Shown here one piece after another: positions 660 through 63,995 of a DNA stretch of 64,000 bases. The DNA comes from Alphaproteobacteria bacterium (lineage in GTDB: Bacteria; Pseudomonadota; Alphaproteobacteria; GM7ARS4; CBDIDI01), in the NCBI GenBank assembly GCA_965277685.1, contig OZ255830.1, positions 761,617-825,616 on the forward strand, read 5' to 3'. Position 1 is the first letter of the stretch; each line of letters begins with the position of its first letter. The notes under the pieces were generated by a model. The model was not told where the DNA came from. It made no database searches and worked only from the letters and a program-made list of their open reading frames with translations. Position numbers and translations under genes: made by a program.

Positions 660-2117
660 CTATTTTTTAGGCCTGAAAAAAACCCGACCGCAAAGATCGT
701 CATAAATCTTTGTCAATGTTTCCAAATCATCGACCGGACACCGTTCATCGGTGGCGTGAATCGTCTTGCTGACCGGGCCGAATTCAACCACCGGACAATA
801 CCCATGGATGAAACGCGCGTCCGAAGTGCCCCCACCCGTTCCCGATTTCGGGCGCAATCGGGTGACCGAATGGATCGAATCGGCCACCATCGTCGCAAAT
901 ATATCGGCATCGACACGAAAAGGCTCGGCGTTGATATGAATGTCGAGATGATAAGGATGCCCGGCCTTGTCCAAGATTTCATGCAGGCGGGCCCCCAAGC
1001 GGGCGCCGCTCCAATGGTCGTTAAAGCGGATATTGAATACGGCCCGCGCCCGCTTGGGGATAACATTGGCGGCGCGATTGCCGACATCGACCGATGTAAT
1101 GGCGCAATGGGACGGCGCGAAAAAGGCACTTCCGTCATCCCATCGCGTTGTGCCGATCATCCCCAGCATTTCCAACAATGGCGGGATCGGGTTATCGGCC
1201 CGCTCGGGATAGGCCGAATGTCCGGCCCGACCGGTGACAATCAATTCCGCGCTGAGGCTGCCGCGCCGCCCAATCTTCATTTCCTCGCCGAGGCGATGGC
1301 TGTTGGTCGGCTCGGCCAGAAGGCAAAAATCGGGGATTTTTCCGTTTGCCTGCATCCACTCGAGGACTTTTGCGGTACCGTTAACCGCTTCGGCCTCTTC
1401 ATCCCCGGTAATCAGAAACGACACCGTTCCGGCAAACGCTCCGTCCGGGCATCGATTCAAAAAGCGGGCAAATCCCGCCACCGCACAGGCCACGGCACCC
1501 TTCATGTCAACCGCGCCGCGCCCGTGCAAAAATCCATCTTTGACCACGCCAGAAAAAGGCGGATGGCACCAATCGGCGGCGTTATCGGCCGGAACGACAT
1601 CGGTATGGCCGGCAAAACACAGATGCGGATGGGCATCACCGCCGCTTTCATGTCCCTCGGCATGTCCCCCATTACGCCCGCTTTCATGTCCCTCGGCACG
1701 CCCACCGTTATGTCCCTCGGCACGCCCGCTTTCATGTCCACCGCTATGTCCCCCATCATGCCCGCTTTCATGTCCCCCATTATGTCCCTCGGCACGCCTA
1801 CCGTCGTACCAGGCGAAAAGATTGACGATTTTTGCCCGATGCGTTCGCGGACGCGTGAACGCCGCACCGGTCGAAGGGGCATCCCCGGATCGCGCGTCTT
1901 GATCGGCATGGGCCGGTTGCTTTGCCTCGGCCTTGTTGGCCGATGGGCGCGCCGGAGCGGGATCATTTTCCCCGCCAAAGGGGAGGTGGCGGCATTGACA
2001 GCCAAGGTCGGTCAATGCCCGGGCAAGAATGGCCTGGGCACCGGCATCTTGGGGGGTGACACTGGCGCAGCGGACAAGATCGCGGGCAAGGGGGACCGGA
2101 TCGACCCACGCGGCCAT
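660..2117 (-). CDS. dapE: Succinyl-diaminopimelate desuccinylase with two insertions
   Basis: Motifs SVTP, LCFAGHTDVVP, GRGAVDMKG, ITGDEE, EPT, GRRGS, GGTSDARF, IHATDE. Start placed at MAAWVDP. Confidence 0.95.
   Translation of the reverse strand: MAAWVDPVPLARDLVRCASVTPQDAGAQAILARALTDLGCQCRHLPFGGENDPAPARPSANKAEAKQPAHADQDARSGDAPSTGAAFTRPRTHRAKIVNLFAWYDGRRAEGHNGGHESGHDGGHSGGHESGRAEGHNGGRAEGHESGRNGGHAEGHESGGDAHPHLCFAGHTDVVPADNAADWCHPPFSGVVKDGFLHGRGAVDMKGAVACAVAGFARFLNRCPDGAFAGTVSFLITGDEEAEAVNGTAKVLEWMQANGKIPDFCLLAEPTNSHRLGEEMKIGRRGSLSAELIVTGRAGHSAYPERADNPIPPLLEMLGMIGTTRWDDGSAFFAPSHCAITSVDVGNRAANVIPKRARAVFNIRFNDHWSGARLGARLHEILDKAGHPYHLDIHINAEPFRVDADIFATMVADSIHSVTRLRPKSGTGGGTSDARFIHGYCPVVEFGPVSKTIHATDERCPVDDLETLTKIYDDLCGRVFFRPKK
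1637..1805 (-). repeat. In-frame 12-bp-unit repeat in dapE (GHES/GHNG/RAEG)
   Basis: Repeated CATGTCCCTCGG/CATGCCCGCTTT units on the + strand. Confidence 0.9.
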
Positions 2118-2331
2118 GCTTTTATCGCGCCGCCCGCCGCGCGCGCCCTTATGCCCCAAGGGAATGCCCCGGAAGATGCTCGGGTAGATACCCCGATAGA
2201 TTCTCGGGGGAGTGCTCGCCGGTGGGCCCCTTTTTATGACCCCTACGCATGAACCCCATGATGCCCCCTATCATGATTCGGGACATTATTCGCATTACGT
2301 CCTTTGCCGGGCCGGGGCGTCATCATTCGCC

Positions 2332-2877
2332 CTAAAGCCGGGGAACCGTGACACCCTTTTGACCCATATATTTGCCCTTGCGATCCGCATAGGACACCTT
2401 GCATTGTCCGGATGCCTTTAGAAAAACAAATTGGGCCGCGCCTTCGTTCGAGTAAATTCGGGCCGGAAGCGGGGTCGTGTTCGAAAACTCGAGGGTAACG
2501 TGCCCCTCCCATTCCGGTTCCAACGGGGTGACGTTAACGATAATGCCACAACGGGCATAGGTCGATTTACCGAGACAAATAACCAAGACGTCCCGGGGGA
2601 TACGAAAATATTCGACCGTTCGGGCAAGGGCGAAAGAATTGGGGGGGATCACACAGCTATCGCCACGGCGATCGACAAATCCCTGCTGGCTGAATTGCTT
2701 GGGGTCAATCATGGCCGAATCAATATTGGTAAAGACCTTGAATTCATCGGCCACCCGGGCGTCATAGCCATAGGACGACAATCCATAGGAAATAACCCCC
2801 TCGCGGTTTTGGGCCGGGGCAAACGGTTCAATCATGCCATTCTTTTTCGCTTGGTCGGCGATCCAATAATCGGGCAT
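2332..2877 (-). CDS. dcd: dCTP deaminase
   Basis: [48 protein letters not shown]. The frame stays open upstream to 3153, so the start is uncertain. Confidence 0.95.
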
Positions 2878-3166: not shown

Positions 3167-3364
3167 CTACAGGGTGTTTTTCGAAGTGTTTTTCAAAGTG
3201 CCGTCGCCCTTGATGTCTTCGATTATCGGGCGAGGGGGGGTTATCGGGCAAGGGGGGTCGATCGGGCAAGGGGGGGCACCGACGGCGCGCGCGCCCGCGC
3301 CTTGCTTGCGCAATCGCAGATTACGGCGCAGAGCCGCGGCCCGCTGCTTATTCGATACATTCAT
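3167..3364 (-). CDS. Small alphaproteobacterial hypothetical protein ([12 protein letters not shown] type)
   Basis: The N-terminal [15 protein letters not shown] resembles the small conserved ORF often found upstream of dcd. Its ATG overlaps the greA stop. Confidence 0.55.
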
Positions 3365-4005: not shown

Positions 4006-7000
4006 TTAATCGTCTTCGAGAACCACGGGGCGGGTGAAATAATGTTGCAGCGGCTTGACATCAAGGGGGCGGCGCCGAATTTCCCTTATCGCCGCCACCG
4101 CCGCGCGGGCCCCATGGATGGTCGTATAATAGGGAATCCGCGCTTTCAGTGCCGCCCGACGCAGGGTAAAGCTGTCCTTTATCGAACGGGTGCCGGCGGT
4201 GGTATTGATCACCATGGCGATCTCTTGATTATCGATCGCATCGACGATATGGGGGCTTCCTTGGCGCACCTTGCGCACCGTGCGCACATCGAGACCGCCG
4301 CCCTTTAACCAATCGGCCGTACCGCCGGTCGCGCCGAGGGTCAGGCCACCGGTGGCGATATCCCGGGCCAAGGCCAGGGTATCATCGGTTTTATCCGCAT
4401 CCCGCACCGAGAGAAGGATGCACCCGTGCAGCGGCAGGGCGGAATGGGCATCGATTTGGGACTTGGCAAAGGCCCGGGCGAATCCGTGATCCAGGCCCAT
4501 AATTTCCCCGGTCGATTTCATTTCCGGGCCGAGTAAGACATCGCTTTCGGGAAAGCGCGCGAACGGAAAGACCGCTTCCTTGACGGCCATATGATCGGGG
4601 TCGGATTGGGGCAGTTGGAATTGATCGAGCCGCGCGCCAAGCATCACCCGGGTCGCGATCGATGCCACCGGCACGCCGGTTGCCTTTGCGACAAAGGGGA
4701 TCGTTCGGCTTGCCCGGGGGTTGACCTCGAGCACGAAAATATCGCCCCGGTGAATGGCAAATTGGATATTAATCAATCCGATCACGCGCAAGGCCTTGGC
4801 GAGGATGCGCGTTTGCGCGCGCAGCTTATCGACCATCGCCGGCGAAAGGGAATAAGGCGGCAAGGAACAGGCGGAGTCACCGGAATGGATTCCGGCCTGC
4901 TCGATATGTTCCATCACCCCGGCGATATAAACATCGGTGCCGTCGCTGATGGCATCGACATCGACCTCGATCGCGCCGTCCAGATACGAATCGATCAATA
5001 CCGACGTGCCGGGGGAAACGGCAAGGGCATGATTGATGTATCGCTTTAACCCGTCTTGATCGTGGACGATTTCCATCGCCCGCCCGCCAAGAACGTAGGA
5101 CGGGCGCAGCAGCATCGGAAAGGCGATGGTGCGACCGGCCGCCATCGCCGCATCGACGGTCGTGACGATGGCGCCGCGGGTGCGTTTCAGCCCAAGTTGA
5201 TCCAAGAGATTTTGGAACCGTTGCCGATCCTCGGCCAAATCAATCGCATCGGGGGATGTGCCAAGCACCGCAATCTTGTGCCGCACCAATTCGTGGCTTA
5301 GCTTGAGGGGCGTTTGCCCACCGAACTGAACGATGACCCCGGCAAGGGTGCCCCGGCTTTGCTCGGCCTTGATGACGGCGATGACGTCTTCGGCGCTAAG
5401 AGGCTCGAAATACAAGCGATCGGACGTGTCGTAATCGGTCGATACGGTTTCCGGATTGCAGTTGATCATAATGCTTTCAACCCCGACTTCGCGCATTGCA
5501 AAAGCGGCGTGCACGCAGCAATAATCGAATTCGATGCCTTGCCCGATGCGATTGGGCCCACCCCCGAGAATGACCGCCTTGCGCCGGTCGCTGACCATGG
5601 CCTCGCAGTGCTTTGGATCCCCCTTCCAACTGGAATAAAGATAGGCGCTGTGGCTGGCGAATTCGGCGGCGCATGTATCGACCCGCCGGAACAAAGGCCG
5701 GTTATCGTCGGCATCGCCCCATACCCGGGCCCGGGCCCGGGCGGCATCGACCTTGGCCAAGCGGCTAAGGCGGGCATCGGAAAACCCCTGGCTTTTAAGG
5801 CGCCGCCATCCGTGCCGATCCTTGGGAAGCCCGTCTTTTATGATTGTTTTCTCGGTCTCTATCAGATCGGCAATGCGATCGACGAACCAAGGATCATAGC
5901 CACTGATTCGGGCGATCGTCGCCGCGTCCATATTGCGGCGCAGGGCCTCGCCGACCAACAGCAATCGGTCGGGGCGCGGGCGCGATAATTCGAAGGACAA
6001 TCGCTCGAGCACGCTTTTTTCATCGCGGGTTTCGTTTTTCGGTTTTTCGGGATCGCCCTTTTCGGTATTGCTCCGGCCGCCATCATCGGCAAAATCCGGC
6101 GGGGTTTCGTTTTTCGGATTTTCGGGATCGCCCTTTTCAGTATTGCTCCGGCCGCCATCATCGGCAAAATCCGGCGGGGTCTCAAGGCCGTCCAGACCCG
6201 TTTCCATCGATCGCAGGGCTTTTTGAAGGGACTCGCAAAAATCATGGCCGATGGCCATCGTTTCACCGACCGATTTCATCGACGTGCCGAGCAGCGGCTC
6301 ACTCGCCGGGAATTTTTCAAAGGTAAAGCGCGGGATTTTGGTCACGATATAATCGATCGTCGGCTCGAAAGAGGCCGGGGTCACGCCGGTGATGTCGTTA
6401 TCGAGTTCGTCCAACGTGTAGCCGACGGCCAATTTTGCCGCCACCTTGGCAATCGGAAAACCGGTCGCCTTTGACGCCAGCGCACTGGATCGCGATACCC
6501 GGGGGTTCATTTCGATGATGACTTGCTCGCCGGAAACCGGATCGACCGCAAATTGCACATTCGAGCCACCGGTTTCGACCCCGATTTCGCGCAGCACCGC
6601 CAAGGACGCGTCACGCATGCGCTGATACTCTTTGTCGGTCAGGGTAAGGGCCGGGGCAACGGTGATCGAATCGCCGGTATGCACGCCCATCGGATCGACG
6701 TTTTCAATACTGCACACGATAATCGCGTTATCGGCCCGGTCGCGCACGACCTCCATCTCGTATTCTTTCCAGCCGACAATCGATTTTTCGACCAGGATGC
6801 TTCCCTCCGGCGACAAGGCCAGGCCATCGGCGGCAATGCTCTCGAGGGTCGGCATATCCGGGGCCAACCCACCGCCACTGCCGCCAAGGGTAAAGGACGG
6901 GCGAATAATAAGGGGAAACCCCAATTCCCGCGCCGCTTTTTTGGCCTCGTCCAGACTGCGGGCCAGGATGCCGCGCACCGTCTTCAAGCCGATTGCCGCC

Positions 7001-7415: not shown

Positions 7416-9203
7416 CTATCCTTGACCGGATCCATCCTTTGCATGGGTGGTTGTTTGCTTTTCGCCTTTTTCATTTTGACCCCCGGTGTCGTGATTCTCG
7501 GTATTTTTATCCTGGGTATTTTTATCCCCGGTATTTTGACCCTGGGCTTTTTGCTCTTGGGCGTTTTGCCCCTGGGCTTTTTGACCCCCAGTATTTTGAC
7601 CTTGGGCGTTTTGACCTTTCGCCACGTATTTCCCGCTTAATGCCTCGTGGATCAAAGCGATGCTTTGGCCAATCCCGTAAAAGGCGATAAAGGAACCCAT
7701 CCGCGGGCCTTGATTCTGGCCGAGGAGGATTTCATACAATGCGCTAAACCAGTCTTTCAGGGAAGAAAAATTATGCTCTTTGCCGATCTCATAGACCATG
7801 TTTTGAATGGCCTCGGCCCGATCCGCCCCCCCTTCACGATCGCCATCATGACCATCCCTATCCGCGTCTTGCGCATCGATCGCGGCAAGGCGGCGGGATA
7901 ATTCTTCGATCGCTTTTTTTTCCCGCGCATCGGCCAAGCGATAGCGTTTATGCGGGGCGACAAATCGATGGTAATAACGCACCGCCTTTGCCACCATCGC
8001 ATCCAAAATCGGATCGCTTCCGGCGGTTAGGCGCCGATCGTAACGGGTTAAAAAATTCCACAAAATGACCTCGTCCCGCGCATCGGCCGCAGAGGCCAGG
8101 TTAAGCAGCATCGAATAGGCCGGGCGCGGCATATCGGCCGGCAGATCGCCGCCATGCACATGCCATGCCGGATTGTCGTATCGCTCGGCCGGGCTTTGCC
8201 TGCGCGCCCCGGCCAGGGCGCGCAGGTGATCATCGCTCATCCTTGGAATAATATCAAAATACAACCGCTTGGCCCGGGTCGGCGCATGATACATGAAAAA
8301 AGCAAGGCTTTGTTCCGTTCCGTATTCAAGCCAGGAATCGACCTCCAATCCATTGCCGCGGGATTTGGAGATTTTCTCCCCCTTCTCGTCCAGGAATAAT
8401 TCGTAAATCATGCCGAGAGGCGGCGCCCGGCCGAGAATACGACTGATTTTCGATCCCGTTTGCACCGAGTCCCGCAAATCTTTTCCCGCCATTTCATAAT
8501 CGACGGACATCGCCACCCAACGCATCGCCCAATCCGCCTTCCACTGCAATTTGCACCGCCCGCCAAGAATCGAGATCGTTTTTTCCTTGCCGCCGTCCGG
8601 ATCGCAATAGGTCAAATGATCGCCGGCCATCGCCACGACCTTTGCCTGAAGCACCCGGCCGCTATCCGGGCAAATCGGCAAAAAGGGGGAATAGGTCGCG
8701 CGTCTCTCCTTGCCCAAGGTCGCCGCAACCACGTCCCGTATCGTATCGTGATGGGCAAGAACGCGGCGCAATGTCGCGTCATACGCGCCGCTTTGATACA
8801 TCGCCGTCGCGCTGCAAAACCGATAATCAAAACCAAAGCGATCCAAAAAATCACAAAGCAACGCATTATTATGATCCGCAAAACTGGCGTGGCATCCGAA
8901 CGGGTCGGGAATGGCGCTAAGGGGTTTGTCGATATGGGCCGCCATGCGATCGCGACGGGGAATATTATCCGGCACTTTGCGCAAGCCGTCCATATCATCG
9001 GAAAAGACATAAAGGACGCTGTCGCCGCCGATCTCTCTCCAGGCGCGCCTGATCATCTGGGTGCGCACCACTTCGGCAAAGGTGCCGATATGGGGAAGTC
9101 CGGACGGGCCGTAACCGGTCGCAAAAACGACCTTCTTATCAACCCCGCCCAAATGCGCGGCCAAGCGCCGGGCCTCAAGAAACGGCCACGCCTTACTGGT
9201 CAT
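7416..9203 (-). CDS. lysS: Lysine--tRNA ligase, class I, with a repeat C-terminal tail
   Basis: [63 protein letters not shown]. Tail has [10 protein letters not shown] 15-bp units at about 7490-7618. Confidence 0.97.
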
Positions 9204-9488: not shown

Positions 9489-9998
9489 ATGGCGTCGGCA
9501 TCATATGAAATACGGGTCATAACTGCCAATCGTTTAATCGACGGCGAGGTCGTCTATTTGACACGGGAAGGCTGGGATACCGATATCAATCGGGCCGATA
9601 CCGGCCATGACGATGCGGCCGTCAAGGTACTCCTCGATCGGGCTTGGGCCGATGAAAAGCAATGCCGCATTATCAGCCCCTATTGGATTGGCGTCACCCG
9701 CCGCGATGGGGGCTTTGTTCCCGTTACCTGGCGCGAGGTCATCCGCACGCACGGGCCGGGCGTTGCCGTTATCGACGGGGTTATTCCCCATGCGCAGGGC
9801 AAATCGGGCTTTGCCCGGCCGGCACCCTCGCCCTGGGTAGGCGACACGGATGGCGATCTCGACGAAAGCGGCCCGCATATTGCCGATCGTCGGGCGGCCC
9901 GGCGATCGCCCTCTCATATCAAAAAAGGGCATATTAAGAAGGGGCATATAAAAAAGGGGCCAACCATAAAGGGGCCAACCATAAAGGAACCACGCTAA
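9489..9998 (+). CDS. DUF2849 family protein with low-complexity tail (HIKKG/PTIKG repeats)
   Basis: VITANRLIDGEVVYL and SPYWI-type motifs; lies directly upstream of a sulfite reductase hemoprotein. Confidence 0.8.
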   Translation: MASASYEIRVITANRLIDGEVVYLTREGWDTDINRADTGHDDAAVKVLLDRAWADEKQCRIISPYWIGVTRRDGGFVPVTWREVIRTHGPGVAVIDGVIPHAQGKSGFARPAPSPWVGDTDGDLDESGPHIADRRAARRSPSHIKKGHIKKGHIKKGPTIKGPTIKEPR

Positions 9999-11815
9999 TG
10001 TACCGCTACGATCAATTCGATCACACCCTCGTCACCCAGCGCGTCGATCAATTTCGCGACCAAGTGCAACGCCGCCTTGCCGGCGATCTCAGCGAGGAAG
10101 AATTCAAGCCGCTGCGGCTGATGAACGGATTATATCTGCAGCTGCATGCCTATATGCTGCGGGTCGCCATTCCCTACGGCGTCTTATCGTCCCGCCAAAT
10201 GCGTGCCCTGGCCACCATCGCCCGCACCTACGACAAGGACTATGGCCACTTTACCACCCGCCAAAACATCCAATACAACTGGATCAAATTGGAACAGATA
10301 TGCGATCTTCTGGCCGATCTTGCCCGGGTCGAAATGCACGCCATCCAAACATCGGGAAACTGCATTCGTAACGTCACCGCCGATCCGTGGGCCGGCGCAT
10401 GCCCGGATGAGGTCGAGGATCCGCGGATATATTGCGAAATCATCCGGCAATGGTCCACTTTTCACCCCGAATTTTCCTTTCTGCCCCGCAAATTCAAGAT
10501 CGCCGTCACCGCCGCCGAGCCCGATCGCGCCGCCGTTAAATTCCACGATATCGGTCTGATCATACGCCGGAATGGGCAGGGGCATGTCGGGTTTGAAGTT
10601 CTGGTCGGCGGCGGGCAAGGGCGCACCCCCCGCGTTGCCCAAACGATCCGCCCGTTTTTGGCGAAAACCGATCTTCTTTCCTATCTCGAGGCGATTTTGC
10701 GGGTCTATAACCGCTATGGTCGGCGCGATAACCTGTTTAAGGCGCGCATTAAAATTCTTGTCGAGAACCTCGGCATCGATGCGATGCGTGAAAAAGTCGA
10801 TGCCGAATGGCAGACCATGCGGGGGCCGATCGGTGCGGGCGGATTGGATTTGCCCCAGGCCGAAATCGATCGAATCCATGCCTATTTCACCCCGCCCGCT
10901 TGGAAAAATATCGCCCAAACGCCCGACAAAAACGAAGATGTGCGCTTGGACATGCGTGGGGGCGGGCGCGCGGGCGCCGCACCATCTGGGGTTAATGGCG
11001 ATCTTAATGGCGGCACCAAGGCGGATCGTAATGGCGACACCAAGGCCGATCGTAATGGCCATGCCAATGGCGATCCTAGGGGCGATCTTAAGGGCGATCG
11101 TAATGGCGATTTTGATCGCTTCGTGCGCTATAACACCGCCCCCCACCGGCAGCCCGGATACGCGATTGTCACGATATCGCTGAAATCATCCGATATGCCG
11201 CCGGGCGATGCCGGCGCCGATCAAATGGACGCCATTGCCGATCTTGCCAAACGCTATTCCTTTGACGAGGTTCGGGTCACCCACAGTCAGAATCTCGTTC
11301 TTCCCCATGTCGAACAAACCGATATTGCCGCCGTCTGGCAAGAACTCTGCCGCATCGGCCTTGGCCATGCCAATATCGATATGATCTCCGATATTATTTG
11401 TTGTCCGGGAATGGATTATTGCGCCCTGGCCACCGCCCGTTCGATTCCGGTCGCCAAACGAATCCAAGACCATTTTCACGATCTTCGCCGCCAATATGAT
11501 ATCGGATCCCTGCAGATCAAGATTTCCGGCTGTATCAATGCCTGTGGCCACCATCACGCCGGTCATATCGGTATTCTCGGCGTCGATCGCCGCGGCGAGG
11601 AATATTATCAAATCACCCTTGGCGGCAGTGCCGATCATGACGCGACCGTCGGCCGCATCATCGGACCCGCGTTTTCCGCCCGCGATATCATCGGGGCGAT
11701 CGATACGATCGTTGCGACCTATCTCGATCTTCGCCGCGACGGCGAAATCTTTCTGCAAACGTGGCGCCGCATCGGTCTTGCCCCCTTCAAGGAGCGCCTT
11801 TATGCCGCTTCTTAA
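9998..11815 (+). CDS. cysI: Sulfite/nitrite reductase hemoprotein subunit (CysI type)
   Basis: MYRYDQFD, LRLMNGLYLQ, HFTTRQNIQ, TSGNCIRN, LPRKFKIA, CCPGMDYC, ISGCINACGHHH. Confidence 0.95.
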   Translation: MYRYDQFDHTLVTQRVDQFRDQVQRRLAGDLSEEEFKPLRLMNGLYLQLHAYMLRVAIPYGVLSSRQMRALATIARTYDKDYGHFTTRQNIQYNWIKLEQICDLLADLARVEMHAIQTSGNCIRNVTADPWAGACPDEVEDPRIYCEIIRQWSTFHPEFSFLPRKFKIAVTAAEPDRAAVKFHDIGLIIRRNGQGHVGFEVLVGGGQGRTPRVAQTIRPFLAKTDLLSYLEAILRVYNRYGRRDNLFKARIKILVENLGIDAMREKVDAEWQTMRGPIGAGGLDLPQAEIDRIHAYFTPPAWKNIAQTPDKNEDVRLDMRGGGRAGAAPSGVNGDLNGGTKADRNGDTKADRNGHANGDPRGDLKGDRNGDFDRFVRYNTAPHRQPGYAIVTISLKSSDMPPGDAGADQMDAIADLAKRYSFDEVRVTHSQNLVLPHVEQTDIAAVWQELCRIGLGHANIDMISDIICCPGMDYCALATARSIPVAKRIQDHFHDLRRQYDIGSLQIKISGCINACGHHHAGHIGILGVDRRGEEYYQITLGGSADHDATVGRIIGPAFSARDIIGAIDTIVATYLDLRRDGEIFLQTWRRIGLAPFKERLYAAS

Positions 11816-39323: not shown

Positions 39324-39325
39324 AG

Positions 39326-45966: not shown

Positions 45967-46125
45967 CAAATCGGATGGGGCCAATCGGATGGGGCAAATC
46001 GGACTGGGAATATCGGATGGGGCAAATAGGATCCGATCGCTATGTTCGCCGGATACGGTCGAACAAATCGGATGGGGCAAATCGGATGGGGCAAATCGTG
46101 CCGAACAAATTGGATGGGGCGAATA
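45967..46125. repeat. 14-bp tandem array (AATCGGATGGGGCA), about 11 units
   Basis: The period is 14 bp, not a multiple of 3; lies just upstream of tag. Confidence 0.88.
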
Positions 46126-46166
46126 TGGACGAAGACCAAGCCGGCACAGAAAAAGGAAAGACCCCG

Positions 46167-50359: not shown

Positions 50360-51840
50360 TGACGATAAAAACCCGCTTTGCGCCCAGCCCAACCGGACAT
50401 CTTCATGTCGGCAATGCGCGCATCGCTCTTTTTAATTGGCTTCTCGCGCGGCGGTTTGACGGAGAGTGCCTGTTGCGGCTGGACGATACCGATGCGATTC
50501 GCAGCCGGGCCGAATTTGCCGACCAAATCAAAGCCGACCTTGCTTGGTTGGGTTTGGATTTTGACGAAACCATCCATCAATCGAATCGCACCGATCGCTA
50601 TATGGAGGTCTTTGAACGGCTGCGCCGCCAGGATGCCCTGTATCCTTGTTATGAAAGCCAAGAAGAACTGGATCGCTTGCGCACCCGCCTGCGCGCGCAA
50701 AAGAGAGCCCCCAGTTTTCGCCGCATTCACGCGCGCGATAAAAACGATGGCGATGGCGATCCTTATTGGCGCTTTTGCCTCAGCAACGGCGCGATGGAAT
50801 GGGAAGAGCCGATTTTCGGCAAACGCCGGGTGCATCTTTCCCATCTATCGGATCCGATTATCCGGCGTGGTGACGGCACGTTTTTATATCTATTGCCCAG
50901 TGTCATCGACGATATCGATTTTGCCGTCAATCGGGTTTTACGCGGCGAGGATCACATGACCAACACCGCCGTCCAGATCGATATGCTGGAGCGCATCGCC
51001 ACCACCACCCATACCACCACCCATACCACCGCCCAGGCCACCACCCGGGCCACCGCCCATACCGCCGCCCCCGCCGACCATGCCGCCGCAAATCCGCCAA
51101 AGCCCCATCATTCGGATATCCGTTTCATTCATCTGCCCCTGCTCTGTGACAGCGGCGGCAAAGGATTATCGAAACGCCATTCGCTTGCCCTTACCCTTGC
51201 CCGGTTGCGCCGTGAGGGAATCGAGCCGATCGGCATTCATCAAGTCCTTTTCCGGCTTGGCCAAAGCATGCCGACCGATGCCCGCGATCTTGCCGATATG
51301 ATCCGTATTTTTGACGTTACCACCTATTCGCGCGCACCGGCCCGTCTTGCCGATGACGCTTTTGTCAAAGCCAGTGGCCAGATTCTCCAATCCTTGCCCC
51401 TTGCCGCCATCCGCACACGGCTGGAGAAAAAAAATCCCGCCCTTGCCGGCGCCCTGACCAAGGCGATGTGGGCCATCATCGGGCCTAATATCACAACCGT
51501 GGACGAGGTCGCTTTTTGGATCGCGGTGTGCGTCGATACCCTCGCGCCGCCCGGTTCTATCGATGGCGGTCCTACCGATAGCGATATCCTAGACGCGGCC
51601 CTTGCTTGCCTGCCTCAAAACCCATGGCCGGACGATGTTTGGAATATCTGGATCAAAGCATTAAAGAAGAACGTCACCGCACGGGGCAAAGCGCTGTTCC
51701 AACCGATCCGAATCGCCTTGACCGGCCGCCCGAGTGGGCCGGAACTTGGCCGGCTTTTACCCCTGATCGGGTCGGAGCGCACCAAAAAGCGGTTGCAAAA
51801 CCATTTGGAAAAAACACGGATCGACCCATCAATCTTATGA
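50356..51840 (+). CDS. gltX: Glutamate--tRNA ligase (non-discriminating or second-copy type) with a Thr/Ala-rich insertion
   Basis: TRFAPSPTGHLHVGNAR, LRLDDTD, VLRGEDH, GLSKR, IRIALTGR..GPEL. Confidence 0.95.
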   Translation: MMTIKTRFAPSPTGHLHVGNARIALFNWLLARRFDGECLLRLDDTDAIRSRAEFADQIKADLAWLGLDFDETIHQSNRTDRYMEVFERLRRQDALYPCYESQEELDRLRTRLRAQKRAPSFRRIHARDKNDGDGDPYWRFCLSNGAMEWEEPIFGKRRVHLSHLSDPIIRRGDGTFLYLLPSVIDDIDFAVNRVLRGEDHMTNTAVQIDMLERIATTTHTTTHTTAQATTRATAHTAAPADHAAANPPKPHHSDIRFIHLPLLCDSGGKGLSKRHSLALTLARLRREGIEPIGIHQVLFRLGQSMPTDARDLADMIRIFDVTTYSRAPARLADDAFVKASGQILQSLPLAAIRTRLEKKNPALAGALTKAMWAIIGPNITTVDEVAFWIAVCVDTLAPPGSIDGGPTDSDILDAALACLPQNPWPDDVWNIWIKALKKNVTARGKALFQPIRIALTGRPSGPELGRLLPLIGSERTKKRLQNHLEKTRIDPSIL

Positions 51841-53372
51841 TTCTATCTTTGTTTGATACCTTGGCCGGAAAAAAACGCCCTTTTTCCCCTCTGGAAAAAA
51901 ATCATGTTCGCATCTATGTCTGCGGCCCGACGGTGTATGATTTTGCCCATGTCGGCAATGCCCGACCGATGGTCGTTTTTGACGTCCTGGTCCGTTTGTT
52001 GCGCCGTCTTTATAAAACCGTCACCTATGTCCGCAACATCACCGATATTGATGATAAAATCATCGCGGCGGCCGATCAAAACGGGCAAGATATCAAGACT
52101 TTTGCCGAACGTTTTCAAAACGCGTTTATCGCCGATATGGATCGGTTGGATGTCAAACCCCCCGATCACGCCCCATGCGCGACCGATCACATCGATGATA
52201 TGATCGCCATGATCACGACCCTTATCGACGACCGATATGCCTATTGCCGCGACGGTCATGTTCTTTTTTCCGTCGCCAAAGCCCCGGATTACGGCCTGTT
52301 ATCCAAGCGCAGCGCCGCCCGGCAGCGGGCCGGAGCCGGGGCGCGTCCTCAAATTCAGGCTCAAATCCACTCTCAAATCCACTCTCAAATTCAGGCCCAC
52401 ATTCAGACGGGGGGGCAAGCGGATGTTCACCCTCAAGCTCAGGCCCAAGGTCACCCTCAGATTCAGGCCCAAGGTCAGACCCATATTCAGACGGGGGTTA
52501 TCCGGGGCGATTATAAACGCGACAGTGGCGATTTCGTTCTGTGGAAACCATCCCCGCCGACCATGCCGGGGTGGGACAGTCCTTGGGGACGGGGTCGTCC
52601 GGGATGGCATATTGAATGCTCGGCGATGAGTCACCGCTATCTAAAAACGCCCTTTGACATCCATGGCGGCGGCGCCGATCTGATCTTTCCTCATCATGAA
52701 AATGAAATGGCGCAAAGTTGCTGTGCTTTGAACACAAAAACGATGGCCAATTTTTGGATCCATAACGGCTATCTGACGATGGAAGGGGAAAAAATGTCAA
52801 AATCCCTCGGCAATGTCGTCACCATCCGCGATGCTTGCCGGATATACCGCCCGGAAGTCGTGCGCGCTCTTTTGCTTTCCAGCCATTATCGCCACCCTTT
52901 GGATTGGAACCGGGCAACCCTGGAAGCGACCCGGGCCGGGTTAAATCGACTCTATCAAGCATTGGCCGATTCCAAACCGGCGGGGAAAATCACCGATACA
53001 AACGATGATCCGGTGGTATCGGCCCTGCTTGACGATCTGAACACACCGGCGGCTCTTGCCGCCCTTCATGCCTGTGCCCGGCGCGTCCATAAAGCCAACG
53101 GGGAAGAAAAAATCAAAGCGCAAGAACAACTGCGGCGCGGCGCGCGGCTTTTGGGACTGCTGCGGCAAGAAAGCCGGCAATGGTTTCAATCCGACACCCG
53201 CAAGGCATCCCCAAGCGAAGAATGGATCGATCAACGAATTGCCCTTCGCCAAAAAGCCCGGCGGGAAAAAAATTACGCATTGGCCGATACGCTGCGTGAA
53301 GAATTGGAAGGGGCGGGTATAATCCTTGAGGACAACGCCACCGAAACACGCTGGAAAAGAAATGACCGCTAA
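51837..53372 (+). CDS. cysS: Cysteine--tRNA ligase with a Gln/His-rich insertion
   Basis: YVCGPTVYDFAHVGNAR, VRNITDIDDKII, DFVLWKP, GRPGWHIECSAM, HGGGADLIFPHHENE, KMSKSLGN. Confidence 0.98.
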   Translation: MILSLFDTLAGKKRPFSPLEKNHVRIYVCGPTVYDFAHVGNARPMVVFDVLVRLLRRLYKTVTYVRNITDIDDKIIAAADQNGQDIKTFAERFQNAFIADMDRLDVKPPDHAPCATDHIDDMIAMITTLIDDRYAYCRDGHVLFSVAKAPDYGLLSKRSAARQRAGAGARPQIQAQIHSQIHSQIQAHIQTGGQADVHPQAQAQGHPQIQAQGQTHIQTGVIRGDYKRDSGDFVLWKPSPPTMPGWDSPWGRGRPGWHIECSAMSHRYLKTPFDIHGGGADLIFPHHENEMAQSCCALNTKTMANFWIHNGYLTMEGEKMSKSLGNVVTIRDACRIYRPEVVRALLLSSHYRHPLDWNRATLEATRAGLNRLYQALADSKPAGKITDTNDDPVVSALLDDLNTPAALAALHACARRVHKANGEEKIKAQEQLRRGARLLGLLRQESRQWFQSDTRKASPSEEWIDQRIALRQKARREKNYALADTLREELEGAGIILEDNATETRWKRNDR

Positions 53373-55190: not shown

Positions 55191-56063
55191 ATGAAAAACG
55201 ATCGAAAAACCGAAAGAGAGCATTTATCCGCCCCCGCCGTGATTCTTTTCCAGCCCCAGCTTGGGGGCAATATCGGCTCTACCGCGCGGGCGATGCTGAA
55301 TACGGGATTGACCGATTTGCGTGTGGTCATCGATCCCACCCCATACTCGAAATCCAAATGGGCAACGAAATGGAACCATATGCACGGCCAAGCCCGAATC
55401 ATGGCCGCCGGCGCACGATCGATGCTGGATGGATTGACCCCCCTGCCAAGCTTTGATCGCGCCTGCGCGGGGATCACCCGTCTGTACGGCGCAACCGCCC
55501 GGGGGCGCGATGCTAATCAACGGGTTATGGATCCGCGCAGTGCCGCCGCCGCCATGCGCCGCGATATTGCCGAGGGCGGCACACCGGCCATTGTTTTCGG
55601 CCCCGAATCAAGCGGCTTTGATAACGATGTCGCAAGCCGTTGCGACGCGCTTATCATCGCCGGATTGAACCCACAATTTCGCTCTCTCAATCTGGCCCAA
55701 GCGGTTCTGTTAATCGGATATGAATGGTGGATGCAGGCCCCCGCCCGTCTTCGCGACCAGACCGTTCGAAAAGGGGCAAAACCGGCCTTGCGCGGGGATA
55801 TTGAACATCTTTTCGATCACCTTGAATCGGCCCTCGATCAAGGAAAATTCTTTGCCTCCCCCCAACAAAAACCGGCGATGATGCGCAATATTCGCAATCT
55901 TTTCCTACGCGCCGGTCTGCTCGACCGCGAGGTGCGGGCCTTGCGGGGGATTATCCATTGTCTTTCCGATTCCACCCCCCATCAAAACGCCCCGAAACCC
56001 CCCGGGGGAAAATCCCCCGGGAAAAACCCCCCCGGGAAAAACCCGGTCGGAACGCCGTTTTAA
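55191..56063 (+). CDS. trmJ: SPOUT RNA methyltransferase, TrmJ/LasT family
   Basis: PQLGGNIGSTARAMLNTG, IVFGPESSG, SLNLAQAV, NIRNLFLR. Confidence 0.9.
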   Translation: MKNDRKTEREHLSAPAVILFQPQLGGNIGSTARAMLNTGLTDLRVVIDPTPYSKSKWATKWNHMHGQARIMAAGARSMLDGLTPLPSFDRACAGITRLYGATARGRDANQRVMDPRSAAAAMRRDIAEGGTPAIVFGPESSGFDNDVASRCDALIIAGLNPQFRSLNLAQAVLLIGYEWWMQAPARLRDQTVRKGAKPALRGDIEHLFDHLESALDQGKFFASPQQKPAMMRNIRNLFLRAGLLDREVRALRGIIHCLSDSTPHQNAPKPPGGKSPGKNPPGKNPVGTPF

Positions 56064-56713: not shown

Positions 56714-57670
56714 TCACGATATCGCCGCGTCCAGTAATTGGCGCAATTCGATATGATCGTCCGGTGTAAAACCGAACCAATGGTGAAATGCCTTTTGTCC
56801 CTGCGCGATTAACATATCGATACCGCCGATGGTCGCGTATCCGGCGATCCGCGCCCGCTTGATTAAATCGGTGTTCTTTGGCGCATACACCAAATCATAG
56901 ACCAATGCGCCTTGGGCAAGGCCTTCAAGGTCAACGTCCAGCCGGGGATATCCATCCATTCCACACGGCGTTGCATTGACGAATAAATCGGCATGATCAA
57001 GCGCGTCTTTCGCTTTGTCCATCGTCAGGACGCGGATCGTATTTTTATTGCTCGGGATTTTTTGCCCGGGTTTAACAACGCCATTCCCGCGATCCGTCAC
57101 CGATGGCGGCCCATTGACCGTATCGATCCATCGATTGAACGCATCCATCTTTGTTTTTGACCCACGGCGGACCAAAACGCGCACATCCTTAACGCCATAG
57201 TCCAATAATCCGCAAATCACCGCGCGGGCCGCACCGCCGCTGCCGCTTATACAGGCGGCGGAAAAACGTGCCCGATTACGCGTGGTCGAATCGGGGGCGG
57301 CAATTTTTTCAATCGGGGCGAGAAAGCCGGCAACATCCGTATTATCACCATGCAAAGCACCGTCCTTTGACCCGACCGTGATGGTATTGACGGCGCCAAG
57401 ACGGCGGGCCTGATCGCCGAGGTGATCCAGAAAAGGCACCACCGCCTGCTTGTGGGGAATGGTGACGTTACAGCCGATATAACGGTGGCGCATGCCATCG
57501 ATGAATCGGGAAAGATCATCGCTGCTTACATTGACGGCGCGATAGCGCGCCTTGATACGATTTTCTTTCAGCCAATGATTATGCATCAAAGGGGAGAGCG
57601 AATAATCGACACTGCCACCGATAACGGCCAATATCTCCCTTGGCGCCGATATCCGATTTTTCGGGGTCAA
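56714..57670 (-). CDS. aroE: Shikimate dehydrogenase
   Basis: SLSPLMHNHW, GCNVTIPHK, GAVNT, GDNTDVAGF, GSGGAARA, VNATPCGM, YDLVYAP, GIDMLIAQG. Confidence 0.97.
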   Translation of the reverse strand: MTPKNRISAPREILAVIGGSVDYSLSPLMHNHWLKENRIKARYRAVNVSSDDLSRFIDGMRHRYIGCNVTIPHKQAVVPFLDHLGDQARRLGAVNTITVGSKDGALHGDNTDVAGFLAPIEKIAAPDSTTRNRARFSAACISGSGGAARAVICGLLDYGVKDVRVLVRRGSKTKMDAFNRWIDTVNGPPSVTDRGNGVVKPGQKIPSNKNTIRVLTMDKAKDALDHADLFVNATPCGMDGYPRLDVDLEGLAQGALVYDLVYAPKNTDLIKRARIAGYATIGGIDMLIAQGQKAFHHWFGFTPDDHIELRQLLDAAIS

Positions 57671-57674: not shown

Positions 57675-58529
57675 CTATTCCCCGATACCGCGTATCAAAG
57701 ATTTGGCGCCGTATCGGCGCAACGCCGTCAAAAGAGGCATCATCGGCAACCCGAGGATGGCGAAAAAATCCCCGTCCATATCCTTGATTAGTTGAATCCC
57801 CGGCCCTTCTATGCGACATACCCCGGGGGTCGTGTGCTGCGTTTCAAGGGCAAGATAAGCATCGAGGGCATGATCGCTAAAATCGTGCATCGTTAACCGA
57901 GAATGATCGGTGTGATGCCAAATTTCAGCCCCGTTCCGCCAAAGACTAACGGCGCTGAAAAGATTATGGCAACCACCGCGCATCCATTGCAATTGACGGC
58001 GCGCTTCCTGTGTATTGGCGGGTTTTGATATGCGTTTGCCCCGGCTTTCCAATATTTGATCGCAACCGATGATCAGATCGTTATCCATAGTATCGGTATC
58101 TGAGCCATCATTATCCGGGGCATCATTATCGGGGGCATCGTTATCCGGATCGCCGCCGATCGGATCGCCGCCGCCAAAATCGGTATCCGAACGGGATTTG
58201 GCCCGCTGGCTTTTGTCGCCCCTGTTCGAATCGTGACCCGAATCGTGAGATACATCCCGAAATGGACCCAATAATGGATGTTGGAATAATTGGGGGGGCG
58301 TTAAGGACGGCGACTTGGAAGATATCGACCGGGGGCGGGGGGATGCCAACCGGCTTGCGATCGCCGCGGCTTTTTGACGGGCGAGGTACAACGCCATATC
58401 CCCATTCGTCAAATGCGGTTTTGATCGGCGCAAGGATTCTTCATCGAGATCGGCCGGATATACCGCAACCGCGATTCCGGCACGATTCAAAAGCCGCTTT
58501 CGAATGGGACTGGCAGAAGCAAGAATCAT
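57675..58529 (-). CDS. maf: Maf family nucleoside triphosphate pyrophosphatase with an insertion of about 80 aa
   Basis: MILASASPIR, IIGCDQ, ISKP, GVCRIEGPG, DFFAILGLPM. Confidence 0.93.
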   Translation of the reverse strand: MILASASPIRKRLLNRAGIAVAVYPADLDEESLRRSKPHLTNGDMALYLARQKAAAIASRLASPRPRSISSKSPSLTPPQLFQHPLLGPFRDVSHDSGHDSNRGDKSQRAKSRSDTDFGGGDPIGGDPDNDAPDNDAPDNDGSDTDTMDNDLIIGCDQILESRGKRISKPANTQEARRQLQWMRGGCHNLFSAVSLWRNGAEIWHHTDHSRLTMHDFSDHALDAYLALETQHTTPGVCRIEGPGIQLIKDMDGDFFAILGLPMMPLLTALRRYGAKSLIRGIGE

Positions 58530-61207: not shown

Positions 61208-61256
61208 GCCCCGATTCTATCATACTCGGGCATACACGGGCTAAAAAATGATATTA

Positions 61257-63995
61257 TTAATCCGGTTTCGTCTTCGGTTTGGCCGCCGTGGCGGTCGGCT
61301 TGGCTTTGGCCGCGGCCGCGCGCGGCCCGCCACCCAATGCCCCCTGAGATTTTAAGGGTTTTGTTGAGGGCGGTGTTGCCGGTGATGTTGCCGATGACCA
61401 TAAAGCCTTACTCGATAAAATTTCCTCAAGGTCACGGGCCCGGTAGACCGGCGCGAGGCACTGATGGCCGAGGCAAAGAATAGCACCGGGTTTTTTGAAT
61501 GACGGCGAATCCGATTTTTTGGCTCGGGTCGATAGGATTTTTTCGTTGCTCTTTGGATCTTTTTTCTTTTGGGAAGAGCCATGATTGCCATTGACCGATG
61601 TTTCAGAATCGGTGGAATCAAAGGATGGATCATCGCCGCCATTAAAGGTGCCATTGGTGCTTTTGCCCGATGATTTGGGGCCCGGTTTTTGTTGCGGCGG
61701 CTGATGGCTTATGACGATATAGGGTCCGGCATGGGCATTGGCAACGGCGGCCAAGGCTTTGAAGGTTTTTCGTTTCGGATTGCCGACAAGATGAAGAAGA
61801 TAGGGTCTGTGCAAGAAAGCGGCCACATTGGTAAGGGTCGCATGGGCGATCAGGTCTTTTTCCATGGCTTTGGCAAAAAGGGCGATGATCGCATCGGCCC
61901 GTTGGCGATAAAGCGGGTTTCCGGTTAAAAGCCAGAGGCGGACAAAAACGTCACAAAGAATCGATTGGCCGGCCGGAATCGTCAGATCGCGCACCGTTTT
62001 AATCCGAACGATGACATCGTTTCGGTCGTTGGCACTGAGGAAATAGCCCCCTTTATCGGCATCGTAGTGATGGTTTCGAGCGATGGCCACGATATCTTGC
62101 GCCTTTTGCAGATAGGCCGGATTGCCGCCGGCCTCGTAAAGGCCAAGGGCGGCCCGGGCGAAAAAAGCGATATCATCCAGTGTCGCGACATGGCGGCGGG
62201 TGATCGCATCATGATACAATCGCCCTTTGTCCAGCGCGGCTTTTTCAAGGGCGCCAAAGGCTTTTTCGGCGCGGTCAATCCATTCCGGTTTGGCCAAGAC
62301 CTGACCGGCCCGGGTAAGGGCATGAATCATCATCGCGTTCCAGTCGCAAAGGGCTTTATCGTCGCGGTTGGGGGCGGGTCTTTTCTGGCGTTGTTTAAAA
62401 AGGCGTTGGCGGCATTTTTCGAGTTTTGCATCGGTCAGTGACGCGATGATGCGCTCTCCGGTCGAATCGAGCTGATGCAAGATATTCGCGCCTTGGTAAT
62501 GGCCCTGATCGAGGATCGAATAAAATTGCCCAAAGGTATTTTTAAGCCGTCCCAAAGTGTGATTCAGTGCATCGGTAGACCAAAGATAATAAGCGCCTTC
62601 CTGTTTTTCTTCCGATGGGGGGGCGCTCCGTTTTGTCGGACTTTCTTTGCGCATGGACGTGCCGGCCCGGCGCAGCATACTCCAAAGATTCTTCTTCTTG
62701 CTTGCAACCGGTTTGGAATCGGCATCCAAGGATGCCGCCCATAGGCCCTTTGGCAACCGCATCTCACGCTCGAGCCAGGCGATGGTTTGTTCAACCCGTT
62801 GGCGCCAGAACGGCGATTGATTTTCCTGCCAGCCAAGGCATAACCATTCGACGATAAGGGCGTTGTCATAAAGCATTTTTTCAAAATGGGGAACAAGCCA
62901 TCGGGCATCGACGCTATAGCGGGCATAGCCGCCGCCGAGATGATCATAAATTCCCCCGGTCGACATATGCTCGATGGTGCGCAGAAAGGCATCGCGCAGC
63001 GGTCGATAACCGTTTTCGCGCCACAGTCGATGAAGCATGAAGAAAAGGGGTGCTTGGGGAAACTTGGGTGCGCCGCGCAATCCCCCGTTGATCGGGTCGA
63101 GTAAATGGATCATTTTCTCGCCCATGATGCGCTCGTTTTTTTGGCGGCTGGCCGATTGGGCAAGATATTGGGGGCCGTTTTGGACGACCGGGCCGTCCTG
63201 TGGTCCGGCAAGACCGGCGATCGCTTGTTTTAAGGTTTGGCAGCGCTTGGCGATGGCATTGCGATCTTGTTGCCACAACAGGGAAACGCGCTCGAGGACA
63301 TAGCCAAATCCGGTCATGCCGTCGCGATCTTTGTCGGGAAAATATGTGCCCCCCCAAAAAGGTTCGCGATCGGGGGTTAAAAACATGGTCAACGGCCACC
63401 CGCCGTGGGATCCGTCGGCGGTAAGAGCGGCTTGATAGATGGTGTCGATATCCGGTCTTTCTTCACGGTCGACTTTCACGGGAATAAAATGGCGGTTGAT
63501 AACGGTCGCGATATCCGGATTTTCAAAGCTTTCCCGGGCCATGACATGGCACCAATGGCAGGCGGCATAGCCGATCGACAGCAAGACCGGACGATCGAGG
63601 CGCCGGGCTTCGGCAAATGCTTGATCCGACCAGGAAAACCATTGGACCGGATTATCCTTGTGTTGCAGGAGATAGGGGCTGGTTTGTCCGGTTAATCCGG
63701 CCCCTTGCAATGAAACGGCGGATTCAAGTGCAAGGTTCGATGGCGCTCTTTTTATCGGCGTGGTCCCTTTTTCGGTTTTTGCCCGGGCCGGGGCTTGGGT
63801 GGAAGATTTTTTGAATGGTGTTTTATTTTTTGTGCTCATGGGACTATATCTGGAAGTTCTTGTTCGCGGACGCAAGCGAATTTTATCGGTTGCGGGTTTC
63901 GTTTTTGAACTTAAAACAGGGCTTTTGACCATCGATAGATCCATTTCATCTGTTGATTTATTTCTTTGTGGCATCACATCCAGGAGATATCCCAT
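61257..63995 (-). CDS. Thioredoxin-domain protein, YyaL/SSP411 family, with extensions
   Basis: [85 protein letters not shown]. The true start may be near 63839. Confidence 0.93.

Follow-up and report, generated by a model that had tools for sequence, protein, structure and literature searches.

Gene content of the window

The stretch of DNA analyzed here (the window) comprises 64 kb of contig OZ255830.1 from an alphaproteobacterium, has 55% guanine plus cytosine (GC), and contains 42 protein genes supported by homology. About half of these genes code for in-frame segments that are extra relative to their homologues, many of them associated with short tandem repeats, and these segments are the subject of this report. 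Gene identities were assigned with NCBIfam and Pfam, except for dnaA, which was identified through its homologues and their Pfam domains. This confirmed all 20 gene names given in the original prediction, an earlier note made from the letters of the sequence. Non-coding DNA makes up 19.4% of the window. The genes are arranged as follows.

Left end, minus strand: dapE, dcd, greA, carB, and class-I lysS.
Next block: DUF2849, cysI/nirA-like sulfite reductase, DUF934, lexA, gyrB, rhodanese, dnaA, dnaN, recF, hppA, and DipM-like M23 peptidase.
Next block: DUF815, yajC, secD, secF, dnaE, folK, rsh, pdxJ, acpS, rpsD, rpmE, quinone oxidoreductase, and TrcR.
Last block: tag, class-II DAHP synthase, nadE, gltX, cysS, cimA, trmJ, coaE, aroE, maf, rho, ogt, and yyaL.

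Extra segments in core enzymes

Extra segments of at least 15 aa, ranging from 15 to 208 aa, were found in 22 of the 42 genes, 15 of which carry internal insertions. The original prediction had put the number of affected genes at roughly 25 of about 47. The phenomenon stands, with a corrected count. Together, the segments amount to about 1,780 residues, or about 10% of the residues encoded by these genes, and arrays detected by Tandem Repeats Finder (TRF) are present in 16 of the 22. Insertions were defined by alignment to solved structures, family models, and syntenic orthologues, with boundaries good to about 5 to 10 residues. Their flanks align to homologues on both sides in the same frame, and all host open reading frames (ORFs) are open. 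The segments are listed below by position and strand.

1641..1970, minus: dapE, internal insertion of about 110 aa; PDB 4o23 residues 9-51 and 60-378 align with query residues 21-63 and 174-493; 12/24/36-bp array at 1674-1798 with GH(N/E/D/S)GG repeats.
6031..6174, minus: carB, internal insertion of 48 aa; NCBIfam model positions 1-409 and 411-1057 align with residues 2-411 and 460-1123; 75-bp unit, 2.1 copies, 97% identity (TRF).
7419..7628, minus: lysS, C-terminal tail of 70 aa; NF001968 ends at residue 538 of 608; 15/30-bp array at 7499-7616, GQNAQ type.
9765..9995, plus: DUF2849, C-terminal tail; PF11011 covers residues 9-92 of 169; 15-bp array at 9915-9987, HIKKG / PTIKG.
10895..11152, plus: cysI/nirA-like, internal insertion of about 90 aa; PDB 1zj8 residues 101-326 and 367-556 align with query residues 48-277 and 408-588; 12/24-bp array at 10993-11110.
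12913..13200, plus: lexA, enlarged interdomain linker; 18-bp array; TIGR00498 positions 74-201 align with residues 175-301.
18238..18447, plus: dnaA, N-terminal tract; 12-bp (PIDT) and 15/45-bp (DP[RK][AS]L) arrays.
21135..21758, plus: recF, internal insertion of about 180-200 aa (PDB 5zwu alignment); three 15-bp arrays, PNEI type.
28311..28460, plus: yajC, C-terminal low-complexity tail of 50 aa; TIGR00739 ends at residue 101 of 151.
32223..32435, plus: dnaE, insertion 1, 71 aa, between residues 304 and 311 of Escherichia coli DNA polymerase III alpha (Pol III alpha; 5fku); 18-bp arrays, ENPPP type.
33939..34211, plus: dnaE, insertion 2, 91 aa, between E. coli Pol III alpha residues 823 and 830; includes a 9-bp GKG array.
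35374..35466, plus: folK, internal insertion of about 30 aa after the GSNLG motif (TIGR01498 alignment); 12-bp array at 35387-35434.
38883..39101, plus: rsh (RelA/SpoT), internal insertion of about 74 aa preceding the C-terminal domain; TIGR00691 positions 1-611 align with residues 26-635; 15-bp array of 12 copies at 38919-39095, KNHMG / TNHTG.
40986..41096, plus: acpS, internal segment of about 29 aa; PDB 3qmn residues 4-70 and 108-126 align with query residues 1-70 and 137-155; no visible repeat.
43147..43311, plus: rpmE (L31), C-terminal tail of 55 aa; NF001809 ends at residue 71 of 126.
45218..45577, plus: TrcR (DUF1013), C-terminal low-complexity tail; PF06242 covers residues 47-183 of 303; 15-bp PVDPP array at 45446-45527.
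48515..48646, plus: nadE, insertion 1, 44 aa; 12/24-bp array, GD[RK]A.
49331..49489, plus: nadE, insertion 2, about 45-50 aa, between the nitrilase and synthetase domains.
51016..51123, plus: gltX, internal insertion of 36 aa; 12/36-bp array.
52338..52511, plus: cysS, internal insertion of about 53 aa between 8qhp residues 180 and 182; 12/24-bp arrays, QIQAQIHS.
55974..56060, plus: trmJ, C-terminal tail of 29 aa; 14/15-bp array.
57035..57145, minus: aroE, internal segment of about 27 aa; PDB 2egg residues 24-169 and 192-291 align with query residues 12-164 and 214-313.
58083..58352, minus: maf, internal insertion of about 87 aa; PDB 1ex2 residues 5-59 and 63-186 align with query residues 1-59 and 150-274; 15-bp array, PDNDA.
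62610..62711, minus: yyaL, insertion 1, 34 aa, query residues 429-462, exactly at residue 327 of PDB 7tkv.
61497..61778, minus: yyaL, insertion 2, about 53 extra aa; query residues 740-833 align with 7tkv residues 601-641.
61260..61424, minus: yyaL, C-terminal tail of 55 aa; 7tkv ends at query residue 857.

Some of these differences are visible in gene or protein length. The lexA gene of the window has 912 nt, versus 630 to 777 nt for 80 LexA matches from metagenomes. RecF has 562 aa, versus 386 and 410 aa in orthologues that lack the insertion and 363 to 483 aa in the best 149 RecF representatives out of 1.84 billion proteins. The segments of acpS, aroE, and yyaL are of low complexity, yet contain no repeat detectable by TRF.

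The N-terminal tract of DnaA is probably translated, since the ATG at 18211 overlaps the stop codon of the upstream rhodanese gene, as it does in the close relative described below, and both arrays of the tract have periods that are multiples of three. An alternative TTG start lies at 18442 (codon 90).

At the other end of the window, the coaE family model stops short of the end of the protein. The convergent genes trmJ (plus strand) and coaE (minus strand) overlap by 113 bp at 55951-56063 across one 14/15-bp array, so that their C-terminal tails are the opposite strands of a single repeat array.

Properties of the inserted segments

The inserts are markedly more hydrophilic than the protein cores, with a mean Kyte-Doolittle hydropathy of −1.31 versus −0.17. 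Relative to the cores, Pro (2.6-fold), Asn (2.35-fold), and Lys (1.7-fold) are enriched, as are His, Gly, and Ser, and Leu, Val, Met, Tyr, and Cys are depleted 4-fold. All 22 coding arrays are read in a frame of negative hydropathy, and for 12 of them every other stop-free frame is less hydrophilic.

GltX was modelled with AlphaFold2 from 46 sequences. The mean predicted local distance difference test (pLDDT) score is 89, and only residues 220 to 244 fall below 50. These residues are the insertion; in the model they form a coil that joins a helix to a strand, with the rest of the fold confident. The model predicts that the insertion forms a disordered loop on an intact fold.

The catalytic motifs had been described as intact, and this was the case in the four proteins inspected. 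The HIGH-region and KMSKS-region columns of glutamyl-tRNA synthetase (GluRS) are invariant in the 46 aligned sequences, cysteinyl-tRNA synthetase (CysRS) retains HVGN, KMSKS, HIEC, HHENE, and the zinc ligands, and DnaA and RecF retain their Walker A motifs.

The GltX sequence itself (gene at 50356-51840) is divergent, with 41 to 47% identity to its best homologues versus 62% for DnaA. It scores 257 bits against an NCBIfam equivalog cutoff of 290, with the match confined to the N-terminal half.

Density and period of tandem arrays

The repeat content of the window was explored using TRF, where arrays were defined by a score of at least 50 and calls were merged. The 47 merged arrays add up to 4,996 bp (7.8% of the window), with a density of 7.3 arrays per 10 kb. 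Dinucleotide-preserving shuffles (n = 30) contained a mean of 0.37 arrays, and local 150-bp shuffles contained 0.8. The 80 metagenome loci with LexA homologues (621 kb, 56% GC) have 0.48 arrays per 10 kb and 0.23% of bases in arrays. Similar values were obtained for free-living relatives carrying the same genes (L004 to L006), which form the syntenic orthologue set of Varunaivibrio, Rhodospirillaceae KN72, and a metagenome-assembled genome (MAG), with 0.5 to 1.4 arrays per 10 kb and 0.2 to 0.6% of bases. Five other control loci have 0 to 1.4 arrays per 10 kb. The close relative, L003, reaches 6.8 arrays per 10 kb and 3.3% of bases.

Arrays cover 25% of the non-coding DNA versus 3.6% of the coding DNA, and the two classes differ in their periods. 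Of 23 coding arrays, 21 have a shortest period divisible by three, versus 7 of 17 intergenic arrays (Fisher P = 0.0012). Against an expectation of one-third, the excess in coding arrays is significant (binomial P = 1e-8), and the intergenic count is at the level of chance. The commonest units in coding arrays are those of 12, 15, and 18 bp, as had been proposed, and the full range of coding shortest periods is 9, 12, 15, 18, 24, and 75, plus a single 13 and a single 14. The non-coding shortest periods are 12 to 21, 24, 41, 45, 49, 108, 141, and 161. The strong local tandem-duplication bias put forward in the original prediction is therefore borne out, with arrays denser still in non-coding DNA, where any period occurs, and with multiples of three in coding DNA.

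The copies have diverged in most arrays (63 to 90% match by TRF). In some arrays they are 96 to 100% identical, and these arrays are recent; some others are old. The intergenic arrays detected by TRF include the following.

13840..14166: 108-bp unit, three copies.
305-525, 3223-3276, 12361-12492, 13711-13748, 17477-17657, and 26557-26779: further intergenic arrays.
27778-27949, 36677-36879, 41395-41554, 42581-42773, 44474-44509, and 55090-55151: further intergenic arrays.

Two of these deserve a comment of their own. The array at 305-525, downstream of dapE, which may or may not be coding, is the longest of the short-unit arrays (15 bp, 14.7 copies). Only one of the six frames is closed, and ORFs without a family match are called on both strands. 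The array at 42581-42773, in the divergent rpsD-rpmE intergenic region, consists of 3.1 copies of a 63-bp unit with 99% identity and yields a hydrophobic ORF of 150 aa that has no family match and is probably spurious.

Homopolymer runs in the repeat units

Repeat units, both coding and non-coding, are seeded on C/G homopolymer runs, an observation that is new with respect to the original prediction. A C/G run of at least 4 is present in 12 of 22 coding units, where 2.5 would be expected and the maximum in 2,000 resamplings was 8, and in 12 of 18 non-coding units, where 3.5 would be expected and the maximum was 10. Of 40 units, 14 contain CCCCC or GGGGG (expected, 1.5); AAAA, too, is enriched. 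Since the enrichment extends to non-coding arrays, it reflects a mutational process and not merely what proteins tolerate. The runs also explain the bias of the segments toward Pro (CCN), Gly (GGN), and Lys/Asn (AAR/AAY), a composition shaped by both mutation bias and selection.

Outside the arrays, C/G runs are 1.6 to 3.5 times more common in the window than in GC-matched loci. Over the whole window, there are 9.4 homopolymer runs of at least 5 per kb, versus 1.5 to 6.7 in six other loci. For runs of at least 7, the figure is 1.08 per kb, versus 0 to 0.48 in the five control loci and 1.02 in L003.

Triplications at gene ends

Two longer arrays, both of them young, straddle the ends of genes. 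In both, the copies were aligned as well as called by TRF.

22484..22973: triplication of a 161-bp unit at the 3' end of recF, copies 95-97% identical.
29965..30387: triplication of a 141-bp unit at the secD stop/secF start, copies 97-99% identical.

The 161-bp unit consists of the last 115 nt of recF, the stop codon, and downstream DNA, and the 141-bp unit consists of the secD stop, a spacer, and the secF start, so that two pseudo-junctions now lie between secD and secF. The proteins are unaltered by either triplication, and spurious small ORFs arise from them. These triplications show that arbitrary local sequence is duplicated.

Comparison with orthologues and with a close relative

The proteins of the window trace to a single public contig of 1,633,338 bp, and each protein that was looked up is a singleton cluster at 90% identity. 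The closest homologues of DnaA and GluRS come from alphaproteobacterial MAGs and from Rhodospirillales (Stella, Varunaivibrio, and Tistlia), with only 41 to 62% identity. In the free-living Varunaivibrio sulfuroxidans, the order DAHP synthase, nadE, gltX, cysS, cimA, and trmJ is conserved, and the orthologues lack both nadE segments, the gltX and cysS segments, and the trmJ tail. Nearly full-length matches to the window proteins are given by DAHP synthase and CimA of Varunaivibrio and by DnaN and GyrB from two other relatives. Neither P0001, five further homologues, nor any of the 120 best DnaA matches has the DnaA tract, and the best 149 RecF representatives and the 80 LexA loci lack the segments of those proteins. 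A comparison with alphaproteobacterial orthologues had been suggested as a check, and the segments are missing from these syntenic free-living relatives and from the best DnaA homologues.

The sole close relative found is L003, a 5.9-kb Logan contig (run SRR25758456) whose DnaA is 82 to 84% identical to that of the window. The DnaA tract is missing from L003. The LexA linker and the RecF insertion of L003 occupy the same positions as in the window, with different lengths and units: L003 RecF has about 70 extra residues made of NEPN-type units, and RecF of the window has about 200, made of APNEI and DPNEI units. The common P-N-E motif suggests that the RecF array is older than the split between the window and L003 and has turned over since. 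Because arrays are present in both, this is a clade-level phenomenon and not one of a single strain. The original prediction had described disordered loops growing de novo; the hydrophilic, low-complexity nature of the inserts agrees with this, and the idea that all of them are new here does not hold, given that the LexA and RecF sites are common to L003. Some of the arrays are therefore old and turn over rapidly.

The gene order differs between the two (window 12706-19794 versus L003 261-3474). In L003, lexA is followed directly by rhodanese and dnaA; in the window, the 108-bp array, gyrB, and an intron-containing tRNA-Thr gene are interposed between lexA and rhodanese/dnaA.

Other searches retrieved no further close relative. 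A DnaN scan of GTDB representative genomes returned only distant Bacteroidales and Acidobacteria matches, a GltX search did not recover the orthologue of the relative (best match, 41 to 43% identity), and a concatenated 2,228-aa query for further orthologues of that relative gave zero matches. A metagenome scan with a LexA alignment found no close relative either, and its 80 loci were reused as the controls described above. “Candidatus Riegeria”, with a genome of 1.34 Mb, 51.8% GC, and a coding density of 83.9% (PMC6486704), may be a relative to judge from size and GC content; repeats are not mentioned in that paper.

Extensions and repeats that are not insertions

Several candidates proved to be of another kind. 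Two of them involve arrays located upstream of genes.

39871..40049: array upstream of pdxJ, with periods of 15, 16, 18, 22, and 38.
45967..46133: 14-bp arrays upstream of tag; the tag model begins at residue 81, with an ATG at codon 77.

The pdxJ model begins at residue 154 to 156, and an ATG with a G-rich stretch just upstream lies at codon 157. The pdxJ segment, which had been given as an example of an insertion, was rejected on this ground, as the array precedes the M157 start and the family model; it is very probably a non-coding upstream array that stays open by chance. The extension of the tag ORF is very probably also composed of non-coding upstream arrays, and that of dcd probably is as well. 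A TRF match in hppA (23723-23750) encodes DNVGDNVGD, which we take to be a duplicated motif conserved in membrane pyrophosphatases, and it was dropped as an insertion.

These cases call for caution in annotation, as ORF calls can run through upstream arrays (pdxJ, tag, and dcd) and family cutoffs can fail (gltX).

Putative replication origin and a tRNA intron

The maf-rho intergenic region (58530-59139) is probably a chromosomal replication origin. It contains the only perfect DnaA box of the window, TTATCCACA at 58634-58642, and a box with one mismatch at 58679-58687. It also has the lowest GC content of the window (44 to 45%), and the cumulative GC skew has its minimum and changes sign near 58 kb. 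The order coaE-aroE-maf followed by rho is typical of alphaproteobacterial origins. GC skew at third codon positions can be separated into a coding-strand part and a replication part, the latter of which flips sign at the putative origin. Given an origin at about 58.8 kb, about 70% of the coding bases to its left (9489-56063) would lie on the plus strand, head-on to replication, and this set would include dnaA, dnaN, dnaE, secDF, hppA, and three aminoacyl-tRNA synthetase genes.

The tRNA-Thr(GGU) gene at 16900-17218 (minus strand) contains a 246-nt group I intron after anticodon position 36. The intron matches Rfam RF00028 with 54.8 bits over its full length, and ARAGORN detects the tRNA only when introns are allowed. 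We know of no earlier description of a group I intron in a bacterial tRNA-Thr.

Origin of the segments

We consider it probable that the genome has a raised rate of tandem duplication throughout, and that its products are filtered for frame, hydrophilicity, and permissive position, giving rise to disordered loops in essential enzymes. Duplication probably occurs through replication slippage or template switching over 12 to 20 nt and occasionally over 40 to 160 nt. Runs of C/G or A could often act as microhomology or pause sites, where slipped-strand mispairing between neighboring runs would duplicate the 12 to 20 nt that separate them, followed by expansion of the array. Non-coding DNA would accumulate arrays whatever their period, and duplications of a stop or start codon at the end of a gene would be neutral and persist. 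Inside genes, selection would spare units that are multiples of three, that encode a hydrophilic peptide rich in Pro, Gly, Asn, Lys, His, Ser, and Asp, and that fall in surface loops, linkers, or termini. The surviving arrays may gain and lose copies and, as point mutations build up, decay into segments of low complexity that are probably disordered, with the catalytic cores remaining under purifying selection. A small population size may let mildly harmful insertions become fixed. Weak purifying selection and host association would fit the 1.63-Mb genome and its 19% of non-coding DNA, and we infer them only from these two features.

Several points weigh against this interpretation. It is based on 64 kb of a 1.63-Mb genome from one strain, and the window reveals no repair or replication defect. 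Translation of the segments and their retention in the mature proteins are deduced from the sequence, and ongoing copy-number change is deduced only from the copies that are 95 to 100% identical. The acpS, aroE, and yyaL segments and parts of those in dapE and recF have no detectable repeat, and their origin from decayed arrays is an assumption. The association with homopolymers is not evident in the seven array units of L003, and it could in part reflect which units are tolerated.

The in-frame position of the insertions in alphaproteobacterial housekeeping genes, with the ORFs preserved, recalls a mobile element family transposing in frame, such as the Rickettsia palindromic elements or other miniature inverted-repeat transposable elements. 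Such a family would leave copies related to each other, and in contrast, every insert is built from its own 12- to 18-bp unit. All-versus-all blastn gave five array pairs at E ≤ 1e-3, three of them neighbors in one gene or region and two of them marginal matches of 14 and 22 nt, and the window has zero dispersed self-matches beyond 1 kb. Nine of ten inserts fold no better than shuffles (z, −0.9 to +1.8), and the rsh array, whose unit contains CATATG, alone reaches z = −3.1. The claim that the segments are mutually non-homologous and do not form a single mobile family thus agrees with both the blastn comparison and the lack of a hairpin signal, and we regard transposition as extremely improbable. 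We attach equally little belief to phase-variable contingency loci acting as switches of gene expression. The window is indeed dense in simple repeats and homopolymer runs, but the coding arrays contradict this reading: 21 of 23 have units in multiples of three, so that gain or loss of copies leaves the frame unshifted, and the hosts are essential housekeeping enzymes and not surface or restriction genes.

That the genes are decaying pseudogenes, or that the repeats are assembly or sequencing artifacts, is nearly as implausible. The size of the genome and the 19% of the window that is non-coding would suit decay, and the copy number of the near-identical 141-, 161-, and 63-bp units could be misassembled. 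However, all 42 ORFs are intact, with the inspected core motifs present and a DnaA core 82 to 84% identical to that of L003, and an assembler cannot create copies as diverged as those seen in most arrays or a rule of three that is confined to genes. Moreover, the pattern is also present in L003, an independent short-read assembly. More weight, although still little, can be given to the possibility that selection keeps the segments as useful new disordered regions, with roles in regulation, scaffolding, stress tolerance, or host interaction, and that they are not mutational passengers. The persistence of arrays at identical LexA and RecF sites across lineages at 49 to 84% protein identity and the strongly hydrophilic frames in use speak for it. 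This is, however, in contrast with the sevenfold higher density of similar arrays in non-coding DNA, the neutral duplications that straddle gene ends, and the absence of sequence conservation at the shared LexA and RecF sites. The segments are also mutually unrelated, occur in enzymes without a common function, and have a composition that follows the homopolymer-rich units also found in non-coding arrays. We therefore consider adaptive retention unlikely, and prefer a raised rate of duplication filtered by selection.

A raised rate of duplication may, more tentatively, represent a lasting “tandem-duplication mutator” state of this lineage and its relative, seeded at C/G and A runs and leading to an expansion of disordered segments like that of Plasmodium. 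We see this as possible and rather doubtful. Such a state may be tied to an altered replisome, with two insertions in Pol III alpha and about 200 extra residues in RecF, and perhaps also to the mostly head-on orientation of the genes beside the putative origin, although a tie between head-on orientation and the duplication bias is speculative. If true, the birth and turnover of disordered regions in essential enzymes, and perhaps their co-option, could be followed here in nature.

Significance and comparison with known systems

The window would show, with a clarity unusual for bacteria, how disordered protein segments originate de novo, a process studied mostly in eukaryotes, where the parent repeats have usually decayed. 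The raw input (non-coding arrays and gene-end duplications) stands here beside the selected output (loop arrays in multiples of three), and mutation bias and selection can therefore be separated quantitatively. The enzymes also provide ready variants for the study of loop-insertion tolerance, such as CysRS with about 53, DapE with about 110, RecF with about 200, and Pol III alpha with 71 plus 91 extra residues.

In Ehrlichia ruminantium, which has a small genome with long intergenic regions, active expansion and contraction take place at tandem repeats in non-coding DNA (Collins et al. 2005 and Frutos et al. 2006, as cited in PMC10710844). That account places the process in non-coding regions, whereas here 12- to 18-bp in-frame arrays are also found in about half of the core enzymes. 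E. ruminantium is the closest bacterial precedent, being likewise an alphaproteobacterium with a small genome and dense intergenic tandem repeats (25% of the non-coding DNA here). Its repeat units are about 150 bp long, which would resemble the 108-, 141-, and 161-bp units described above, and its GC content is about 27%, versus 55% here. The nearest named homologues of the window proteins also belong to the Rhodospirillales and not to the Rickettsiales.

The Rickettsia palindromic elements constitute one dispersed, palindromic, mobile family. They share with the segments described here in-frame insertion at permissive positions of conserved alphaproteobacterial genes, leaving the ORF open, and differ from them in that the latter are local arrays of their own unit, with no cross-similarity and no hairpin signal. 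In-frame variable-number tandem repeats (minisatellites) of bacteria, such as those in the tandem-repeat proteins of Ehrlichia and Anaplasma, are concentrated in secreted and surface proteins under diversifying selection. These too have units in multiples of three within ORFs and arise by slippage, the probable mechanism here, but the hosts in the window are cytosolic core enzymes (aminoacyl-tRNA synthetases, Pol III alpha, RecF, DapE, CarB, and NadE).

The nearest analogue by outcome is Plasmodium falciparum, whose housekeeping proteins carry hydrophilic, low-complexity loop insertions with a composition that follows nucleotide bias and an origin thought to lie in slippage or unequal recombination. 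In both systems, hydrophilic low-complexity insertions occur proteome-wide in loops of conserved enzymes. P. falciparum is, however, a eukaryote with an AT-driven Asn/Lys bias, whereas in this bacterium Pro, Asn, Lys, Gly, and His derive from C, A, and G runs, the parent units are still visible, and the process is also seen in non-coding DNA. The mechanisms are familiar; what is unusual is their extent in a bacterial core proteome, where both the input and the filtered output can be seen.

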